DNA of 14,413 nucleotides from a virus (IMGVR_UViG_2654587996_000008), one strand, 5' to 3'. Shown: positions 630-14,413, counted from the first letter of the stretch. Translations and numbers: made by a program. Notes: a model not told the origin generated them from the sequence alone.

Positions 630-656
630 ATGAAAATGGCCCGTGTGAGGGGCCAT
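630..656 (-). terminator. Putative intrinsic terminator of the three-gene operon
   Basis: 7-bp GC-rich stem (636-642 'ATGGCCC' pairing 650-656 'GGGCCAT') with a 7-nt loop, followed on the minus strand by 'TTTCATT', directly after the stop at 659-661. Confidence 0.4.
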
Positions 657-658
657 AA

Positions 659-1126
659 TTATTTTACGATTCTGAAAGAAGGAATCTCAAGAAGAGGCAG
701 AAGCAGTGGTTTAATGCCCACGCGAGTAGATAACCCATAAACCTGCTCACGAACATATGGGTATATAATCAATGGAGCGTTAAAATCAGCCCAATGAGGG
801 ATATGCTTAACAGAGAATTCTTCAGTATCTACTGTAAAAACTCCTCCGACTTCAACCCATATAGAGACAGGTTGGTTCTCATACTCTTGGTTGTCAGCTT
901 CAGAATTATCCTCATCTACAGCAAATCTGCCAGCACGAACCCTCATACTTACATGTATAGTAGATGTTGCTTCATCAAAATCTGAATGGCCTGCTTCCAT
1001 AGCGTAGCTACCAGCTTGGTAGTCAGCCGAATGTGCAGTCTTAACGTCATGCACTTCAATACTCAGCTTCAAAACTTGCAACGAACGGAGTTGCACAGCA
1101 TGTGCTCGAAATGACTTATTTGACAT
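659..1126 (-). CDS. SecB-like chaperone
   Basis: 155 aa. C-terminal 'NAPLIIYPYVREQVYGLSTRVGIKPLLLPLL' matches the SecB signature segment (E. coli SecB '...[30 protein letters not shown]...'). Start overlaps the upstream stop as TAATG (translational coupling). Confidence 0.6.
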   Translation of the reverse strand: MSNKSFRAHAVQLRSLQVLKLSIEVHDVKTAHSADYQAGSYAMEAGHSDFDEATSTIHVSMRVRAGRFAVDEDNSEADNQEYENQPVSIWVEVGGVFTVDTEEFSVKHIPHWADFNAPLIIYPYVREQVYGLSTRVGIKPLLLPLLEIPSFRIVK

Positions 1127-1434
1127 TAGGCCGCCAGTGCAAATTCAGGTTCTGCTTCAACAGCTAAGACCGTGTCAGCGTTCAAGGATTTAGCAGCATT
1201 TAGCTTCACAGTAGCAAACAAAGTTACCAGTTCCTCTGTCATGACTTCTGAAAAGTGCAAAGACAAAGACTCCAGAGTATTTACATCAAAATCTTTGAAT
1301 TTTTCGCTTTTTTTCAGAAAAGAGGAAACATCCCCTTCTCTACATTCCCTGGCTTCTTTAAGGAACTCTTCAGGTGTTAAAGACAAGATGTCTTGTAACG
1401 CCGCGTCCAATGCAGCCTTCATTCTACGGTTCAT
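1126..1434 (-). CDS. Small acidic helical protein; putative antitoxin/adaptor of the operon
   Basis: 102 aa with SD 'GAGGGG' 8 nt upstream of the ATG. Starts 12 nt after the upstream gene and overlaps the downstream start. No recognisable DNA-binding motif; the C-terminal tail '...TVLAVEAEPEFALAA' is acidic/hydrophobic. Confidence 0.5.
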   Translation of the reverse strand: MNRRMKAALDAALQDILSLTPEEFLKEARECREGDVSSFLKKSEKFKDFDVNTLESLSLHFSEVMTEELVTLFATVKLNAAKSLNADTVLAVEAEPEFALAA

Positions 1435-1446
1435 AGTGGAACCCCT

Positions 1447-2052
1447 CTAATTTTTAGTTATAGCAAGATAATCCAGATTTCTAACTATCACAGCAAACGG
1501 CGCTCCAACATACCCAGCCAGTTGGTCTGGCATTTTATGTGGTTGCTGGACGGTGGCTAACACTACGCCAACTGATATGCATTTGGATTCTTCAGTTCGA
1601 TTGATGAGCATTTGATGCACTGCACAGATAAGGTCTTCTCTCTCATCAACATTCTGGGCATTTATAGTTGGCCAAAGACCATCAAGCGCTTTTCTTAAAG
1701 TTACTCTAAACTCGGGACTCTCAAGGTTTAAAACCTCTTCACCAGGTGCCTTGACGTACCCCCAAATTACAGCGCAACCTTTGTCAGCTTCGTCTGAATA
1801 TTCACCTCTTTTTTCAGCAGCAACAAACCAACTTTCTGCAAGTTGAGTTGCATATTGGCATCCTTTTTCAGCAGCATGCCAAAGATAAGCTCCCACACCA
1901 CGCCTACCACCGTCTCCAACTCTGAAACCATTCTCCAGAATTGATGCAGCCCTTGAGCAGCAAGTTCCATGGGAGCCATGTGCTTCGAAGAAGGTAGCTT
2001 CAACTGATTCATCATTAGCGGCTTGATCGGAAACTAAACTTAACATATTCAT
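1447..2052 (-). CDS. Putative ADP-ribosyltransferase-fold protein (PARP/diphtheria-toxin-like H-G-S/T motif)
   Basis: 201 aa. 'FFEAHGSHGTCCSRAASILENGFRVGDGGRRGVGAYLWHAAEKGCQYA' resembles the NAD-binding core of H-Y-E clade ARTs (PARP1 '[37 protein letters not shown]', diphtheria toxin 'YHGT'). Candidate catalytic acidic residues lie further downstream. The functional call is inference. Confidence 0.45.
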   Translation of the reverse strand: MNMLSLVSDQAANDESVEATFFEAHGSHGTCCSRAASILENGFRVGDGGRRGVGAYLWHAAEKGCQYATQLAESWFVAAEKRGEYSDEADKGCAVIWGYVKAPGEEVLNLESPEFRVTLRKALDGLWPTINAQNVDEREDLICAVHQMLINRTEESKCISVGVVLATVQQPHKMPDQLAGYVGAPFAVIVRNLDYLAITKN

Positions 2053-2148
2053 TTAGTTACCATTTATCCGTTTCTTAGTGTTCTTAGCCAACTAACTGAA
2101 CCTTCTTCAGTGGACGTTAGTAGACAAACTATAGGACAAGTTTATCCG

Positions 2149-2154
2149 ATTATA
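2149..2154 (-). promoter_or_regulatory. Candidate -10 box (TATAAT on minus strand) for the three-gene operon
   Basis: Plus-strand 'ATTATA' at 2149-2154 gives a perfect minus-strand TATAAT about 95 bp upstream of the start at 2052. No convincing -35 was found. Confidence 0.2.
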
Positions 2155-2348
2155 AAAACAACACAAGCTATCTGATGAATAGGTTGATCCCGTTTTTAAG
2201 TAATCACCTCAGCAAACAACAATTACTTACTGAAGCAACTGTAACTTAGAGCGCGTACGACCAAAAACCCCGCTAGCGGTGCCGATGAGTGACAAGTTTT
2301 GACAGGTGCATCAAACGATCTGCACATGAAATTTTCTAAAGCGGCGCG

Positions 2349-2609: not shown

Positions 2610-3137
2610 TCATTGATGGTCTGATTTTTCCCACTCAGCCAGGGCGTTTAACCCGGCTTCACTCCATGATTCCGGTTCATCGGGATAATCACCTGCAACA
2701 TAGCAGAGTTCGCAACGCAGCATACGAATTGCCAGCCTGGCATTACCTCGCAAATTGTATTTTTCAAAGTAATGCTGCCCTTCATCATCCTCAAGGCAGA
2801 TAGCACCATCATCAAGAAAGTGCACTTCCCAGCCTAATTCCCCGGCTGCATACAGCACACGCTGCTGTATGCCCTCGTCCGTTACTGGCGCAGGAATTTT
2901 ACCGTCTCTGGCCTTAACTGCTTTCCAGAACTCGCCCCATGTCATTTCCAGCGTTCTTTCTGGCCACATTTCAGAAATGGTGTCTTTCCCCTGTGCTGGT
3001 GGGCTGTTCCGCTGCTCTGTCGCTTCCACATCAATTTTTTTACCGGACATGACCACTTCGCCTTTCTCGAGCCAGTCGTAAACTGTCTGGCGGCTTACGC
3101 CTTTGTATTTGGCGTATTCGGCTTTACTCATCAACAT
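2610..3137 (-). CDS. Nu1-like winged-HTH DNA-binding protein (possible terminase-small-subunit-like / packaging-redirection protein)
   Basis: About 175 aa from the ATG at 3137 (SD 'GAGGTG' 7 nt upstream; the ORF track's earlier ATG at 3155 lacks an SD). N-terminus 'MSKAEYAKYKGVSRQTVYDWLEKGEVV' resembles lambda Nu1 'KKQLADIFGASIRTIQNWQEQGMPV'. The repeat array lies immediately 3'. Confidence 0.5.
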   Translation of the reverse strand: MLMSKAEYAKYKGVSRQTVYDWLEKGEVVMSGKKIDVEATEQRNSPPAQGKDTISEMWPERTLEMTWGEFWKAVKARDGKIPAPVTDEGIQQRVLYAAGELGWEVHFLDDGAICLEDDEGQHYFEKYNLRGNARLAIRMLRCELCYVAGDYPDEPESWSEAGLNALAEWEKSDHQ

Positions 3138-3236
3138 GTAGCTCACCTCATGCATATACGATAAAAAATAATTTCATGCGGAAAGGGAATGCGTTGTGGG
3201 TATGGAGGAAAGGGGCAATAACCGCCCCTTACTGAT

Positions 3237-4339: not shown

Positions 4340-5482
4340 TTAAAGGGAACTTTTTTTCGCCCCTTCAATTTCTGCCTGACAAATTTCGTCATTTGTAAAT
4401 GAGTACTGCAGATAGACATATCCCTGAGTGGAATTGTTCGCTCTGGCCTCAATAGATATAGTATCAATATTGTTTTTTAATGGTATTTCTTTTGTTCCCT
4501 TCCATGTGGCAGATAAGAAGCGTTCTTTTTTGTTTAGCCCCCTCATCCAGTCCTGAGGATCTTTCCAAATTGAACCAGCCAGCAAAAAGTCTGTAGTATC
4601 AGCCTTTCCATACAGAGAACTTAAAGAATTACTCAATTCTTCAAACTTGGATTTAAGAGCCAATCCATAGCTATCAGTATCAATATTTTTTCCTAAAGCC
4701 CGTATTTGACATAAACCAGCTTTCGGGGAGATCAACAAACCATACATTTCAAAATCTGCGTTTTGCTTCGGTAATTTATCAGAAGTATACAGATTCACAC
4801 TGTCTGGTAGTGGCTTGAGCTTAGCACCGATCATATCTTCGATGTTTTTCTGTGTAAGACCGGCTTCTAAGCCAAACGGACCATCCGCTGGCGGGAGTAA
4901 AGGAAGTTGCTCTTGGGAATTTTTGGCTGTTACTTCCGTTTCAGTACTGTTTTTTGCGTCATTATCTTGTACTGATGCCAGCTTAACTTCAGCGAGGCCA
5001 TACTTGGCTGTGAGGTACTTTTGCTGCAACATTGCCATGGTCTGCTCTTCAGTGGCAACAGTAGATAATTTTAGTACCTTTATCAGACCACCACTATACT
5101 GACGAGCATCAGCTTTGGCTTCGTTGATTTTTGCATCTAAGCTGTCAATTTCAGTTTTAATTGAAGCCGCAAGCTCAGGATCAGGTTTTACTCCAGATAC
5201 AACAACATCAATTTTGGCGCCTGATTCAATAGCATTAATACGCTGTTCCAAAAGCGCTTTATTAGTTCCTAATATTTCCAGTCTTGCTGTTGTCAGATTT
5301 TTTATCAACCCACCAGAAAACTGCTGGTCAACTTCCTTAGCTGCTGATATTTCACCTTCCGTTTGCGATAGTTCAGCTTTAAGAGCCGCTACTTCCTGTT
5401 TCTGTTCTGGAGTTAACTCTTCTGGCCCACATCCGGTTAACATTACTATACCGACTAATGTTGCAATTAAAGTTTTATTCAT
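4340..5482 (-). CDS. Lipoprotein (380 aa) with internal repeats
   Basis: Signal peptide and lipobox 'MNKTLIATLVGIVMLTGC'. Repeated 'Q[FY]SGGLIK' motif and coiled-coil-like central region. Function unknown. Confidence 0.65.
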   Translation of the reverse strand: MNKTLIATLVGIVMLTGCGPEELTPEQKQEVAALKAELSQTEGEISAAKEVDQQFSGGLIKNLTTARLEILGTNKALLEQRINAIESGAKIDVVVSGVKPDPELAASIKTEIDSLDAKINEAKADARQYSGGLIKVLKLSTVATEEQTMAMLQQKYLTAKYGLAEVKLASVQDNDAKNSTETEVTAKNSQEQLPLLPPADGPFGLEAGLTQKNIEDMIGAKLKPLPDSVNLYTSDKLPKQNADFEMYGLLISPKAGLCQIRALGKNIDTDSYGLALKSKFEELSNSLSSLYGKADTTDFLLAGSIWKDPQDWMRGLNKKERFLSATWKGTKEIPLKNNIDTISIEARANNSTQGYVYLQYSFTNDEICQAEIEGAKKSSL

Positions 5483-5616: not shown

Positions 5617-5904
5617 TTACTGACTACAATTGTTCTTTTTTTGGTATTTCCTGAATGCCTCACCATTGGGCTGATGTAATCCCATCCCGACATGTGCCCG
5701 GCAGATGGTTTTGCGCATCTCCCCGAAATTATCCTGCCTTGCTGGTGGGCGTGCTGCCTTGTGGATACATTCCGCGCGACGTTTTGCCGCCTGTTCCCGT
5801 GCCTTGTCATCATTCGCCAGCATGATGACCTCAGCCCACCGCGCCGCCGCTCTGCGGTACAGGCCACGCGCTTCCAGTGCTTCCGCTTTACTGTCCTGAA
5901 TCAT
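5617..5904 (-). CDS. PerC-family transcriptional regulator (Pch-like)
   Basis: 95 aa. 'KAEALEARGLYRRAAARWAEV' matches the conserved PerC/Pch N-terminal motif as I recall it. SD 'AGGAGG' upstream; ATGA overlap with the upstream stop. Confidence 0.65.
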   Translation of the reverse strand: MIQDSKAEALEARGLYRRAAARWAEVIMLANDDKAREQAAKRRAECIHKAARPPARQDNFGEMRKTICRAHVGMGLHQPNGEAFRKYQKKNNCSQ

Positions 5905-6479
5905 GCACCTGTTACCTCCTTTGCTGCCCGGCGCTGACGTTTGCGCTTCTCATTCAGCGCCACCAGCCGCGTTTCTGCCTCCTGCTGTTCCTGTGGTGTC
6001 ACTTCCCCACATGGCTGGCCTTTCAGGTCGTAGCGTACCCCACCAGCCATTAAGGCGCGGTAATAGCGCGGACACTGCGCATAAGATGCCAGCGTCGCAC
6101 GTAATGCCCCTGGCCCGAATGCCAGCCCCCTGACGGCGAGGTTCTGCATCAGGTCGTCGAATATCCCCACCTTAAGCGGCTTCGGTGCTTCCCGGCTGAA
6201 TAAGTCAGGCCACAACTCAGTAAGGCGGTTAACGCGCCTGCGGTTTTTTCGCTGCCGTTTGGTCATATGCCGCCACGGTGTCGCCCCTGTGGGCTTTTGC
6301 TGCGCTTTCTGGTTACCGGGCATCACTTTATGTGCCGATGTGGTTTTATCCTGCTCCTGCGTCGCCTGCGTCGTTTTCTGCGGCGTGCCGTAAATGCCTT
6401 TCGGTTTTCTGTTAATGGTCAGCTTAGTCATGCTTTGCCCCATCGTTTTTACTGGTTGTTTCATATCCGGTACTTTCAT
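5901..6479 (-). CDS. ProQ/FinO-domain RNA-binding protein
   Basis: 192 aa. 'KPLKVGIFDDL...LRATLASYAQCPRYYRALMAGGVRYDLKGQPCGEVT' parallels E. coli ProQ 'RPLKIGIFQDL...[36 protein letters not shown]', preceded by a basic Lys/Arg/Gln-rich N-terminus. The exact start is uncertain among several in-frame ATGs. Confidence 0.65.
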   Translation of the reverse strand: MKVPDMKQPVKTMGQSMTKLTINRKPKGIYGTPQKTTQATQEQDKTTSAHKVMPGNQKAQQKPTGATPWRHMTKRQRKNRRRVNRLTELWPDLFSREAPKPLKVGIFDDLMQNLAVRGLAFGPGALRATLASYAQCPRYYRALMAGGVRYDLKGQPCGEVTPQEQQEAETRLVALNEKRKRQRRAAKEVTGA

Positions 6480-9612: not shown

Positions 9613-9829
9613 GGTGCACCTCCTGCACATCAGCCATGATAATTTTTCCGGCCTTATCCAGTGCCTGATCGGCTTTTAGCTGCACAAATGCTAAATAATG
9701 GGAGATGCATTCTGATTCTCTGACTGCGTGTTTATGCGCCACACCAGCGATAGCTGAAATCTCAATAAGTGAATCCATCAGCGTTTTGATAGCGTCTACC
9801 GCTGCATCAGGCCATGTTGCATTACACAT
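9605..9829 (-). CDS. Hypothetical protein (74 aa)
   Basis: SD 'AGGAGG' upstream of the ATG at 9829; ATGTGTAA overlap with the upstream ORF. Confidence 0.45.
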   Translation of the reverse strand: MCNATWPDAAVDAIKTLMDSLIEISAIAGVAHKHAVRESECISHYLAFVQLKADQALDKAGKIIMADVQEVHHA

Positions 9830-10025
9830 GCTCCACCTCCTGGCGAATACGGGCAGCGAATACCATCACGCAGCCATCAGGGGATTGCTGGCGTGCTTCC
9901 TGTTCGCTGGTGGCCTCGATGTGAATTACGCGCGGTTGTGCTGTGCTCAGGGCGATAAAACGCCAGATGTATTTATTCAGGTTGTGCGAGTCCCGCCCTT
10001 GCGGGTGTGTGGTATGATTTCTCAT
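9822..10025 (-). CDS. Hypothetical protein (67 aa), first gene of the replication operon
   Basis: Internal ATG of the long stop-free frame, at 10025, with SD 'GAGGT' 5 nt upstream. Translation 'MRNHTTHPQGRDSHNLNKYIWRF...'. Confidence 0.45.
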   Translation of the reverse strand: MRNHTTHPQGRDSHNLNKYIWRFIALSTAQPRVIHIEATSEQEARQQSPDGCVMVFAARIRQEVEHV

Positions 10026-10122
10026 AGCTACCTCGATACTGTTGCTATCGTTGGTGGTTAGAAGCCCGGTTAGTGTTAGCGCACTGCCGGGTTTCGTCGT
10101 TTCTGCACCTTGCATCAACAAG

Positions 10123-10174
10123 GTGTTGAACACCAATTTAAACCTAGGTGTTAAACACGTCAAGTGTTGAACAC
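10123..10174. promoter_or_regulatory. Three 11-bp palindromic operator-like sites GTGTT(G/A)AACAC in a divergent control region
   Basis: Sites at 10123-10133, 10148-10158 and 10164-10174. The third overlaps a plus-strand -35-like 'TTGAAC' (10167-10172), with -10-like 'CATACT' (10190-10195) upstream of the RHH gene. Confidence 0.55.
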
Positions 10175-10224
10175 TTGTTTTTTTTCCTGCATACTGCATT
10201 TGTTTTTTGTGAGGGGGACACAAC

Positions 10225-10404
10225 ATGGCGACAAAAGCAGTAAACGCAAAATCACAAACAGTTGCGGCAAGGGTTCCGCATGAAGTTATGAACAATGTTG
10301 AGGCGGTAAAAATGCCTGGTGAAAGTACAGGGCAGTTTGTAACAGCAGCATTAAAGCGAGAAGTTGAGTACCGCCAGCGGCGCAAGGCCAAAGAACAGGA
10401 GTAA
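10225..10404 (+). CDS. Small ribbon-helix-helix-like regulator (59 aa), not in the ORF track
   Basis: ATG at 10225 with strong SD 'GAGGGGG'. Translation 'MATKAVNAKSQTVAARVPHEVMNNVEAVKMPGESTGQFVTAALKREVEYRQRRKAKEQE' fits a beta-strand plus two helices. The only clearly plus-strand gene, divergent from the replication operon. Confidence 0.5.
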   Translation: MATKAVNAKSQTVAARVPHEVMNNVEAVKMPGESTGQFVTAALKREVEYRQRRKAKEQE

Positions 10405-10661
10405 CCATCACCAGCGCCGTGGTGTGAGGAACGACGGTGCATCGTTTTACAGGGCAGCGCCATGACCAACAAAGAATCAACCAATACACCATCACCGGCC
10501 CGGAAAAGACAGCGCAGAAAGATAGCGTACGAGTATGAGTCAGACAGATTCGCGCCCTGTGCGTTTATCCTTGAGAATTTCCTTAAAGAGTACAGGCGCA
10601 CAAAAATGGGGTCGCATACCTGGAAAACATCGCGACATGGCAATGTTAAAGAGCCGGAATA

Positions 10662-11084
10662 GCCCACCAGCAAGCCAGCACACTGATCACATTGCCCACC
10701 AGCCGCAAATCTGGCATTGTTGGCGATGTGTTCAAGTGTGTAGCTTTCCCACTGGTGGCCCTCTGCGGTCGCCTTTGTTTTATCCAGAACGAAATCAGAC
10801 ATCAGATTAATCAGCACCTGGCGACCTGACAAAAACGCATCAGTCGCGCCACCAGCAAAATTTTTTGCTTTCCGGACAGCGTGACCAACGACATTTTGCA
10901 GCAAAATATTCTGCATTTCTGGCGTGCTGTAGTAACGGTGATCAGCGCCTTCACTCTGTGCGACCACAACGCTATAATCTGCCTCGTAGACAGTAAGCAA
11001 TATGGCGCAGTAGGCTATTCGTTCACAAAGGCGCTCCGGCAACGGGGCGCTTTCTCTTTTTGTAACGGTCAGAGCGTTACACAT
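10662..11084 (-). CDS. Hypothetical protein, 5' portion only; 3' end undefined (possible disrupted gene)
   Basis: ATG at 11084 overlaps the antirepressor stop (ATGTGTAA). The first ~140 residues look protein-like, but the frame then runs stop-free through regulatory DNA to 9822, so the true end cannot be set. The end coordinate is arbitrary. Confidence 0.25.
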
Positions 11085-11925
11085 GGCTGTTTTCCTCCAT
11101 GCGACGGGCTAACCAACGCTGCGAAAGACGAATTAATTCAGCTTTCCGCTGGTGGTAGCCCTGGCCTAACTCAATCAGCGTGATATTGCTCTGCTCAAGG
11201 TAAGAAAGGTGCTCAAGCTGCAACGTGCTCATGTGGTCGCGTGGTTCGCCTGTGATGCCGTTCGCCTGCGCCCACTGTTTTGCAGTCATGCCACCCAGCA
11301 CGATACGCGCCAGCATATTGGCTTCCGTGGTGTAGTGGTGCTGGAACGTGTTTTTATCCAGTTCAGCCCGGTACGCCTCCAGCGCGGCACACATTGGCTT
11401 AAAGTAGCTGGCAACTGTGATACGGGCTTTCATTTCCCGGCGTAACGCTGCGGAACGCACTGGCGCTACCTTGTGTAGCTCCTCCTCGCATTTGATGAAG
11501 TACTGACGAACGGCGCGGCCCTGTTCGGTGCGTTCGACCATCGCCAGTTCTTTCGCCATGTTCGTGGAGATCAAATAGTCTTCACTGCGACGATCACCGC
11601 CGCGCTTTGTTGTCCAATCAGAATCAAACTGTTCAATATTTACACTTTGGTTCCCCCATTTCGGGGAATCAAAGTACAAATTTTCTACAACTTCAAAATC
11701 CACACCCTTTTTAAATCCGTACTCATCAATGCGTCCTTTAATCCAGGTTGTGAAATCACGACCTACCCCGAGCGCCTTATGCGACGCTCTGGCGCTAACA
11801 ATATTGGTTTCACGCCCGCCAATAACGCCGGAAATAACCGGGATAATTTCGCCAAAATTTTGCAGATTCTGGTTTTCAGGCCGAACGAAGCCCTGCCCCT
11901 GTACGGGCGTTTTTCGCAGTTTCAT
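11077..11925 (-). CDS. Phage antirepressor-like protein (AntA-type N-terminal domain plus KilA-C-type C-terminal domain)
   Basis: 282 aa with SD 'AGGAG' upstream. 'SARASHKALGVGRDFTTWIKGRI' and 'MAKELAMVERTEQGRAVRQYFIKCEEEL' match antirepressor domain signatures as I recall them. Confidence 0.6.
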   Translation of the reverse strand: MKLRKTPVQGQGFVRPENQNLQNFGEIIPVISGVIGGRETNIVSARASHKALGVGRDFTTWIKGRIDEYGFKKGVDFEVVENLYFDSPKWGNQSVNIEQFDSDWTTKRGGDRRSEDYLISTNMAKELAMVERTEQGRAVRQYFIKCEEELHKVAPVRSAALRREMKARITVASYFKPMCAALEAYRAELDKNTFQHHYTTEANMLARIVLGGMTAKQWAQANGITGEPRDHMSTLQLEHLSYLEQSNITLIELGQGYHQRKAELIRLSQRWLARRMEENSHV

Positions 11926-12002: not shown

Positions 12003-12200
12003 TCAGGTAGCTGTTCCGCGTGATTCCGCAATACGCTGATTAATCCACTCGTCAATTTCACTCTCAACGAAAGCAATCGCTCGCGAGCCAATTTTTACAG
12101 GTTTAGGAAAACGCCCTTGGGCAATGAGTTTATAGATCCATGCCCTTCCATACCCTGTACGGCGCATGGTTTCTGGCATACGAATTAAAGATTGTGACAT
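12003..12200 (-). CDS. alpA: AlpA-family transcriptional regulator / excisionase-like protein
   Basis: About 65 aa from the ATG at 12200 (SD 'GGGAGA' upstream). 'IRMPETMRRTGYGRAWIYKLIAQGRFPKPVKIGSRAIAFVESEIDEWINQR' is the AlpA-type HTH signature. The ORF-track N-terminal extension is rejected. Confidence 0.75.
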   Translation of the reverse strand: MSQSLIRMPETMRRTGYGRAWIYKLIAQGRFPKPVKIGSRAIAFVESEIDEWINQRIAESRGTAT

Positions 12201-12266
12201 GATAATCGTCTCCCGTTGTTTATTGATGCCTACGGGAGACATTGAAGCAGGTAAGACATTGGATAT

Positions 12267-12303
12267 CACCGCAATTGCGGTGAATGATACCGCAATTGCG
12301 GTA
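12267..12303. promoter_or_regulatory. Tandem 16-bp perfect palindromes CACCGCAATTGCGGTG and TACCGCAATTGCGGTA (operator-like)
   Basis: At 12267-12282 and 12288-12303, centres 21 bp apart, between the 251-aa gene stop (12315) and the alpA start (12200). Confidence 0.55.
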
Positions 12304-13198: not shown

Positions 13199-14413
13199 TC
13201 ACCCGCATTTTCCGAACTCACCATGCACCACATTTCCGCCATGCTCGAGCGAATCCATATAGTCGGCATACCACTGGAGCATCTCCCGGCGACCATCCAG
13301 ATATTGCGCATGGTTGTATGTGCCACGAATTGAGTTTTTATCGACGTGTGCAAGCTGTGTCTCTATCCACGCGGTGTTATAGCCCTGCTCATGCAAAATG
13401 GTGCTCATGGTGTGCCGGAATCCATGACCAGTAACCTTTCCGTTATAGCCGATGCGTTTAAATACTTGGTTTATGCTAGCCTCGCTCATTGTTTTCCTTG
13501 GATCATTACGGCCGGGAAACATAAGCGGATAATTGCCAGTTAATTCTTTAATCTGCCCAATAAGCGAAAGAGCCTGCTCAGACAAAGGCACCACATGAGG
13601 GCGACGCATTTTCATCCGTGAAGCAGGTATCTCCCAGATAGCCTTGTTGAGATCGATTTCATCCCATAATGCACCGCGCAGTTCGCCAGTCCGCAAACCG
13701 GTGATAATCAGTAGACGAGCCGCCATAACAACCAATGCACTTCCTGAGTAACTGGACAATGCCTTGAAAAAATCAGGTAATTCTTTGGCTGTGAGGAAAG
13801 GATAATGACTAGATTCATGACCTTGCATCGCGCTGGTGAGATCCGGTGCAGGGTTATACTCAGCACGTCCAGTGACAATTGCATAGCGGAAAACTTCCCC
13901 GCATCGCTGCCTCACTTTTTTGGCTTTTTCGGTAGCACCGCGCCCCTCGATGCGCCGCAGCACATTCAGCAGTTCAAGTGGTTTGATTTCGGCGATTGGT
14001 TTTTTGCCAATGTAAGGGAACACATCTTTGTTGAAGGCTTCGAGGATGTCTGAAGCATAACCAGCAGACCATTTTTTTAATTTGCTGCTGTGCCACTCAA
14101 TGGCAATATCTTTGAAGGTGTTGTTTAACTGCGTTTCCCGGGCAATCTTTTCCTCTCGTTTCGCTTCCATCGGATCGATACCCCCAGCGATACTCCTTTT
14201 AGCTTCTTCACGTTTTGCACGAGCATCAGCCAAGGTAACTTCAGGATACACACCTAGTGCTAACAGCTTCTCTTTACCAGCTACACGATACTTGAAGCGC
14301 CAATATTTTCCTCCACTAGGTTTTACCAAGAGATACAGACCACCACCATCAGCCAGCTTGTAAGCCTTCTCTTTTGGCTTGGCAGTGTCTATTTGACGGG
14401 CATTGAGTTTCAC
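13199..14413 (-). CDS. int: P4-type tyrosine integrase (site-specific recombinase)
   Basis: 404 aa. N-terminus 'KLNARQIDTAKPKEKAYKLADGGGLYLLVKPSGGKYWRFKYR' is typical of P4/CP4-57-type integrases; C-terminus has 'HGFRHT' and 'RGTYNHA' (catalytic Tyr region). Apparent GTG start sits exactly at the window edge, so the N-terminus may be slightly truncated. Confidence 0.9.
   Translation of the reverse strand: MKLNARQIDTAKPKEKAYKLADGGGLYLLVKPSGGKYWRFKYRVAGKEKLLALGVYPEVTLADARAKREEAKRSIAGGIDPMEAKREEKIARETQLNNTFKDIAIEWHSSKLKKWSAGYASDILEAFNKDVFPYIGKKPIAEIKPLELLNVLRRIEGRGATEKAKKVRQRCGEVFRYAIVTGRAEYNPAPDLTSAMQGHESSHYPFLTAKELPDFFKALSSYSGSALVVMAARLLIITGLRTGELRGALWDEIDLNKAIWEIPASRMKMRRPHVVPLSEQALSLIGQIKELTGNYPLMFPGRNDPRKTMSEASINQVFKRIGYNGKVTGHGFRHTMSTILHEQGYNTAWIETQLAHVDKNSIRGTYNHAQYLDGRREMLQWYADYMDSLEHGGNVVHGEFGKCG

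Follow-up and report, generated by a model that had tools for sequence, protein, structure and literature searches.

The 14,413-nucleotide (nt) stretch of viral DNA IMGVR_UViG_2654587996_000008 analysed here (the window) carries, on its minus strand from position 2052 to 659, a three-gene operon encoding a putative toxin, a small antitoxin and a SecB-like chaperone. This toxin-antitoxin-chaperone (TAC) arrangement is that of CmdTAC, an anti-phage system earlier named PD-T4-9 (PMC11618068). Taken as a whole, the locus is probably best explained as a TAC operon of the CmdTAC kind whose toxin is an anti-phage ADP-ribosyltransferase (ART). That it encodes an ART-fold toxin within a CmdTAC-like module is very likely; messenger RNA (mRNA) as the toxin's target, the least secure step, is somewhat favoured by analogy. 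The operon comprises the following features, with protein lengths in amino acids (aa).

2128-2156, minus strand: promoter-like site (TTTATA, 17-nt spacer, TATAGT), a pattern match only, scoring 9/12 in a consensus scan
1447-2052, minus strand: toxin gene, predicted CmdT-like ADP-ribosyltransferase (H-Y-E clade), an intact open reading frame (ORF) of 201 aa
2008-2022, minus strand: AANDE motif, toxin residues 11-15, in a low-confidence N-terminal extension
1849-1980, minus strand: putative NAD-pocket signature, toxin residues 25-68, from translation, invariant columns and alignment to PARP and CmdT
1591-1593, minus strand: codon of E154, candidate third residue of an H-Y-[E/D/Q] triad, from conservation
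1126-1434, minus strand: antitoxin gene, 102 aa, starting 12 nt past the toxin stop, C-terminus EFALAA
1129-1140, minus strand: ALAA codons, candidate ClpX degron by C-terminal sequence, antitoxin residues 99-102
659-1126, minus strand: SecB-like chaperone gene, 155 aa, from library and BLASTP matches
636-656, minus strand: terminator-like hairpin (7 pairs, 5 of them G-C) followed by a T-rich run, 2 nt past the chaperone stop

The genes run in the order toxin, antitoxin and chaperone, the 12-nt gap after the first being followed by a 1-nt overlap between the other two. The promoter-like site precedes the start codon of the toxin by about 75 nt, and an AGGGG Shine-Dalgarno-like sequence precedes the antitoxin start. 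The chaperone start overlaps the antitoxin stop (TAATG), implying translational coupling of these two genes.

The original prediction, made from the DNA alone, placed an ADP-ribosyltransferase signature of four segments in the first gene of this operon. All four are found within residues 25-68 of the intact toxin ORF: AHGSHGT at 25-31 (strand 1), SILENGF at 37-43 (helix 1), GVGAYLW at 52-58 (strand 2) and CQYA at 65-68, in a stretch that reads FFE-AHGSHGT-CCSRAA-SILENGF-RVGDGGRR-GVGAYLW-HAAEKG-CQYA. Checked on the sequence, the minus-strand codons of the three residues discussed below are 1969-1971 for H28, 1885-1887 for Y56 and 1591-1593 for E154. Written loosely as the regular expression HG[ST]..I..G[FLIV]..G.G.Y[FLI], the signature has a single match in the six-frame translation of the window and is present in 40 of the 43 ORFs recognised by the hidden Markov model (HMM) of the toxin family. 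A chance motif is ruled out because 2,000 shuffled versions of the window, 200,000 residue-shuffled versions of the toxin and 1,970 non-toxin ORFs from the collected loci contained no match to the expression.

The toxin is labelled 'hypothetical protein' in GenBank, and direct searches of Pfam, PADLOC, NCBIfam, PHROGs and, with phmmer, PDB sequences gave no match. A word-indexed homologue search returned only 12 close clusters, from Klebsiella, Citrobacter and Pectobacterium, all labelled 'hypothetical'. A profile of these clusters, run exhaustively against 1.84 billion representatives (clusters at 50% identity), recovered 411 proteins at E ≤ 0.001, including 258 at E ≤ 1e-10, and nearly all are 170-210 aa long; a word-indexed search using a 60-sequence profile found only 17. 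In the 60-sequence family alignment the mean column identity is 27%, with H28, T30, G52, G54, Y56, W58, W75 and P171 invariant and G26, G29, I38, F43, G49, L71, A72, E154, G183 and P185 conserved in at least 90%. H28 and Y56 are also invariant in 24 of 24 strong relatives, 19 of which came from a genome-contig scan and thus lie outside the training set of the profile. Searches of PADLOC, Pfam and NCBIfam with the 60 members gave nothing beyond isolated noise matches; PADLOC PD-T4-9_A matches one of the 60, at 0.0016. Although sizeable and spread over at least five phyla, the toxin family is missed by Pfam, NCBIfam, PADLOC and PHROGs.

AlphaFold2 modelled the toxin with a predicted local distance difference test score (pLDDT) of 80.5 from a shallow alignment and of 93.0 from the 60-sequence alignment, the latter with a predicted template-modelling score (pTM) of 0.85 and agreement of all five models. 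The order of secondary-structure elements is the same in both, except that the first has an additional short N-terminal helix of low confidence. The N-terminal half of the model comprises a strand (21-31), a helix (32-41), a strand (55-60), a helix (66-81) and two further strands (93-103 and 107-109); the remainder consists of two long helices (113-131 and 135-157) followed by strands at 163-167, 186-190 and 196-198. The model shows the split beta-sheet of the ART core fold, so that the core implied by the original prediction was recovered, and 19 of the 20 best structural matches are ART-superfamily chains, with a like result for the first model. The structural-match table reads PARP4 7.9, PARP15 7.8, Tankyrase-2 7.4, PARP1 7.2, PARP3 7.2, PARP13 7.0, MbcT 7.0, PARP2 7.0, Tpt1/KptA 6.8, NatT 6.8, diphtheria toxin 6.6, exotoxin A 6.0 and DarT 5.4. 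Because about 105-120 residues superpose on ART chains at 3-4 Å, the ART core is taken as present and the two long helices as a family-specific insertion. Foldseek gave weaker matches (best E-value 0.018, TM-scores about 0.35-0.38), the best 15 all being PARP or RES chains. From these models the toxin is predicted to have an ART fold of the PARP/diphtheria-toxin (H-Y-E) clade. An assignment to Tpt1/KptA was rejected, its structural match being only partial.

The RES chains among these matches bear on a different reading, in which the ART-fold toxin would consume NAD+ as an NADase or NAD+ phosphorylase, like the RES-domain proteins MbcT and NatT, and kill by depletion. We consider this quite improbable. 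The likeness to RES is structural only: there is no Pfam RES match, the conserved residues are H, Y and E, with the H and Y following the PARP/diphtheria-toxin pattern and not R-E-S, and the family profile matches only PARPs in the PDB. The RES/NADase assignment was rejected because its catalytic residues differ from those conserved in the toxin. Moreover, the operon contains no Xre-type antitoxin, and both characterised relatives of the toxin transfer ADP-ribose to RNA. The NAD-depleting defence effectors to which the signature had also been likened find no echo here, the toxin lying in a TAC operon related to the mRNA-ADP-ribosylating CmdTAC.

Evidence for the catalytic residues comes from profile alignment. 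Against all PDB sequences the family profile has only five matches, all of them PARP catalytic domains (PARP3, E 0.012; PARP10; PARP12). The alignment, HGT..I..G[FL]...G-k-G-[IV]-Y-F, pairs H28 and Y56 with the catalytic His and Tyr, respectively, of PARP3/10/12, which bears out the proposed likeness to the H-G-S/T of PARP strand beta1, the following helix and the Tyr-containing strand. H28 is the H-G-[ST] histidine that closes strand 1, and Y56 is the strand-2 tyrosine of G-x-G-x-Y-F, which stacks on nicotinamide in the ART clade. Judged by alignment, H28 and Y56 are equivalent to the catalytic residues of PARP and CmdT. The CQYA segment of the signature has a narrower distribution. Its tyrosine, Y67, lies exactly 11 residues past Y56, the spacing of Y54 and Y65 (Y-X10-Y) in diphtheria toxin; it is invariant in 13 close homologues and unconserved across the 60-sequence family, so this part of the predicted signature is present, with diphtheria-toxin spacing, and is confined to the close clade.

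Only two CmdTAC systems have been studied so far. CmdT of E. coli ECOR22 is an ART whose triad is given as H-Y-[E,D,Q], and mutation of Y41 abolishes both toxicity and defence. It blocks translation by ADP-ribosylating the adenine N6 of GA dinucleotides in single-stranded RNA. When the T4 capsid protein titrates the chaperone CmdC, ClpXP degrades the antitoxin CmdA, whose C-terminus is LAA (PMC11618068). CmdT of E. coli O112ab:H26 (WP_097333619.1) modifies mRNA in vitro in an NAD+-dependent manner, and an AA-to-DD change in O112 CmdA abolishes CmdTA toxicity (bioRxiv 10.1101/2024.02.24.581848).

For comparison with the window, an ECOR22-type cmdTAC was recovered from a complete E. coli genome by blastn with the published Y41A primer (megablast gave no match). 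The operon is 1,214 bp, equal to the published size, and its proteins match PADLOC PD-T4-9_A, _B and _C at 4e-97, 3e-38 and 7e-61. The mutated tyrosine is the second Y of Q-G-Y-Y-F-W, Y43 in the recovered protein and Y41 in ECOR22 numbering. With hhalign, the window family aligned over 9 columns only with the single ECOR22-type CmdT sequence and over 117 columns with a 59-sequence ECOR22-type CmdT alignment (probability 94.6%, E 7e-8). The aligned pairs include G26-x-H28 with G9-x-H11, G-A-Y56-L-W with G-Y-Y43-F-W, W75 with W55, and V-L-N-L with L-L-D-L. The O112ab:H26 CmdT sequence, retrieved via the synthetic-fragment sequence in the dataset of that paper, reads G-Y-H-G-T..S-I..N-F..G-T-G-A-Y-F-F and, near the C-terminus, G-V-P-N-C-R-V-L-C-V. 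It is related to the window family at an hhalign probability of 96.4% (E 1e-9; 36 bits with the family HMM) and to the ECOR22 family at 83%. Because O112ab:H26 CmdT is thus nearer to the window family than to the ECOR22 family, the name 'CmdT' spans very diverged lineages, and by profile comparison the window toxin is placed as a further lineage within the same superfamily as both. PADLOC PD-T4-9_A is narrower than the CmdT name, since the validated O112ab:H26 CmdT reaches only 0.0072 with it, and current CmdTAC detection models probably undercount the family, given how far apart the two published toxins lie. The antitoxins of the published systems are 121 aa (O112ab:H26, FDAARGOS_1287, L015 4001-5320) and 77 aa (ECOR22-type, N2250, L007 2905-4118).

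The O112ab:H26 system resembles the window in its order of toxin, antitoxin and SecB-like chaperone, in an antitoxin ending in AA and in its location on a mobile element. Its toxin likewise has an N-terminal G-x-HGT..SI..F..G.GAYF, a C-terminal G-x-P-x-C and a conserved Glu in T-x-E-E, but its central part does not align with the window toxin and it lacks the N-terminal AAND extension. The antitoxins have no detectable similarity (121 aa versus 102 aa), and the O112ab:H26 chaperone, which matches PD-T4-9_C at 4e-35, is much nearer to ECOR22 CmdC than the window chaperone is (2e-9). The ECOR22 system shares with the window the TAC architecture, an LAA-ending antitoxin and a prophage/satellite hot spot; the toxins share W..W and L-[DN]-L motifs, with Y41 in G-Y-Y-F-W corresponding to Y56 in G-A-Y-L-W. 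However, ECOR22 CmdT is recognisable by profile-profile comparison only (the E of 7e-8 above), has G-[YF]-H-x-C at strand 1 where the window toxin has G-S-H-G-T, and carries an invariant Q166 in place of P185. The T4 capsid trigger and the GA-adenine N6 target belong to the ECOR22 system, and equivalents in the window would be by analogy. Unlike PARP and diphtheria-toxin domains, in which a Glu opens the last core strand, the window toxin lacks this Glu; it also has a 45-residue two-helix insertion, is a small single domain under antitoxin control, and its likely substrate is RNA rather than protein. The likening to DarT-type systems was not borne out: DarTG was rejected in the absence of a macrodomain partner, and the operon is instead related to CmdTAC.

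E154 is the likely third residue of the triad, judging from conservation. It is the sole strongly conserved acidic residue, being E in 56 of the 60 aligned sequences and in 23 of the 24 strong relatives, with one Q, and it has a counterpart in O112ab:H26 CmdT (TTREEL). Such E/Q variation agrees with the triad described for CmdT, 'HY-[E,D,Q]'. In the model, E154 is found where the predicted helix 135-157 ends, ahead of strand 163-167.

Several points weigh against assigning the toxin to an active CmdT-like lineage. E154 sits on a predicted helix and not on the canonical strand, and the position preceding the last core strand (x-V-I-V; E-Y-I-V in PARPs) is A187, with Cys in most relatives. Among the candidate catalytic acidic residues that had been proposed downstream, in unspecified positions, E154 is the best candidate by conservation. 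Furthermore, the toxin is unmatched by any direct sequence model, including PADLOC PD-T4-9_A (none at E ≤ 1), and BLASTP of the toxin is empty against ECOR22-type CmdT and marginal against O112ab:H26 CmdT (about 37% identity over 35 residues). The CmdT family alignment was required to see the kinship, because BLASTP was empty and the single ECOR22-type sequence aligned over so few columns. A catalytically dead pseudo-ART or decayed remnant, comparable to PARP13, TASOR or RCD1, in an operon that no longer works, would leave the toxin inactive. We regard this as highly improbable: pseudo-PARPs typically lose the His or the Tyr, whereas the window toxin keeps both. H28, Y56, E154, P171, G183 and P185 all match the family consensus, the three ORFs are intact and translationally coupled, and the assembly collection has the identical protein in 109 of its listed blocks.

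The antitoxin gave no match to PADLOC PD-T4-9_B at E ≤ 1 and none to CmdA by BLASTP. The chaperone matches PADLOC PD-T4-9_C at 2e-9, CmdC at 4e-6 by BLASTP, the NCBIfam SecB models at 2.6e-4 and Pfam SecB at 2.5e-5 (24.7 bits, under the 26-bit cut-off).

The association of the toxin with a SecB-like partner extends across its relatives. A degenerate DNA pattern of the signature, scanned over species-representative genomes, yielded 42 loci, and ORF calling and HMM searches on these together with the loci collected before separated a strong from a weak group. The strong group comprises 24 toxin matches at E ≤ 1e-33, from Gammaproteobacteria (Vibrio and large sulfur bacteria), Desulfobacterota, Nitrospirota, Spirochaetes and Bacteroidota. 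Downstream DNA of 900 nt or more is available for 21 of the strong relatives, and in 20 of these a SecB-like ORF lies 270-500 nt downstream, in the layout seen in the window. Small middle ORFs could be identified at 18 loci; 15 of them have xAA at the C-terminus and the other 3 have LAV. The exception without a detected SecB-like ORF is L040 (388-939; E 2e-36), on an uncultured Methylococcaceae contig, where the downstream ORFs are 145 and 140 aa; its chaperone may be very diverged or replaced.

A weak group of toxin matches (1e-8 to 1e-13), in which Chamaesiphon and other cyanobacteria predominate, has only the N-terminal half in common with the window toxin and lacks a SecB neighbour. The cyanobacterial loci are L018, L019, L024-L027, L030, L033, L039, L042, L045, L046 and L056, and the Chloroflexota loci are L016 and L052. 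Their proteins, of about 185-215 aa, have an N-terminal GYHGTS..I..GF..G.G[VI]YFWQD but diverge in the C-terminal half, and the next ORF downstream frequently measures 208-287 aa. On sequence features, the group seems to be an ART family in its own right, unannotated and with other partners.

The TAC module is mobile and keeps company with defence genes. In Klebsiella, close homologues of the three-gene module are also found behind a P4-type primase, in a P4-like element, and beside umuDC, and on a Polaromonas plasmid (a tblastn match) it adjoins a type ISP restriction enzyme; mobility follows from the occurrence of the same three-gene unit in these other settings. Neither megablast nor blastn matched the TAC region of the window to complete E. 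coli genomes or to plasmids.

By homology to the characterised systems, the operon would be expected to share toxicity, NAD+ use, a single-stranded RNA target, ClpXP dependence, a phage trigger, anti-phage function and abortive infection. In the scheme we propose, H28 and Y56 would line the nicotinamide pocket of an NAD+-dependent toxin, with E154 as the third residue. In the uninfected cell, the 102-aa antitoxin would neutralise the toxin, and the SecB-like chaperone would hold the C-terminal tail of the antitoxin, hiding the ALAA degron so that the antitoxin survives. Upon infection, an abundant, newly made phage structural protein may compete for the chaperone, leaving the antitoxin unprotected against ClpXP, and its degradation would free the toxin. 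The freed toxin would then ADP-ribosylate its target, most probably single-stranded RNA or mRNA as CmdT does, so that translation would stop and the infection abort. All that the three toxin lineages have in common is the NAD-binding half and short C-terminal motifs. An active ADP-ribosyltransferase might instead modify single-stranded DNA, as DarT does, structured RNA, as RhsP2 does, or, in the manner of diphtheria toxin, a protein (a translation factor, for example); on balance we think such a target unlikely.

The termini of the toxin and antitoxin offer a further lead. In the ssrA tag, AANDENYALAA, the AANDE half binds SspB and the ALAA half binds ClpX, and the AANDE of the toxin and ALAA of the antitoxin recall these two ends; we treat this as a lead only for SspB-assisted delivery of the antitoxin to ClpXP. 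The N-terminal extension that bears AANDE is specific to the enterobacterial clade and missing from most of the wider family, with a pLDDT of 52-68. AAND is kept in 12 of 13 close homologues, and the Tyr at ssrA-tag position 7 is unconserved. A fuller proposal joins two elements: a third, unannotated CmdT-like lineage with a rebuilt active site, whose E154 would come from the helical insertion in place of the canonical strand, possibly with a different nucleic-acid specificity and phage trigger, and, in the enterobacterial clade, an ssrA tag split between toxin (AANDE) and antitoxin (ALAA), with SspB docked on the toxin delivering the antitoxin to ClpXP. In this combined form we find it rather doubtful.

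The window toxin is a diverged toxin of an already understood kind of defence, and the mechanism itself is not new. Recognising its family would widen defence-system annotation, and its natural variants would be useful for asking what sets the RNA specificity of the toxin and the recognition of phage proteins by the SecB-like sensor. If confirmed, the placement of E154 and the AANDE/ALAA pairing would raise the significance of the locus.

The remainder of the window contains the following genes, together with one encoding a DUF4222 protein.

13199-14413, minus strand: P4-type tyrosine integrase
12003-12269, minus strand: AlpA
11077-11925, minus strand: AntA-domain protein
9822-11084, minus strand: 420-aa protein with matches to PHROG repressor families in its C-terminal ~90 aa
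6788-8536, minus strand: D5_N/DUF5906 primase
5901-6479, minus strand: ProQ/FinO protein
5617-5904, minus strand: PerC-like ORF
4340-5482, minus strand: lipoprotein
2610-3155, minus strand: small-terminase-like helix-turn-helix (HTH) protein (terS-like)
1-267: IS3-family transposase orfA fragment (HTH_Tnp_1, 6e-25), at the window edge (segment 1-393), where it abuts the TAC operon

With these genes, the window looks like an integrative satellite, PICI- (phage-inducible chromosomal island) or P4-like, in which the TAC operon is distal accessory cargo. Three placements of the identical toxin, representing 18 of 23 contigs, share this island order; in some of them the insertion sequence is absent. 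The IS3 element is a secondary insertion, since it is missing from some otherwise identical islands (L058). The heptamer GTGTCAA has six exact copies in the 14.4-kb window, all within 250 bp of one another, in the intergenic region 2350-2600 between the small-terminase-like HTH gene and the TAC operon. The longer repeat unit is about AAAAGTGTCAA(C/G), and these repeats could be iteron-, operator- or pac-like.
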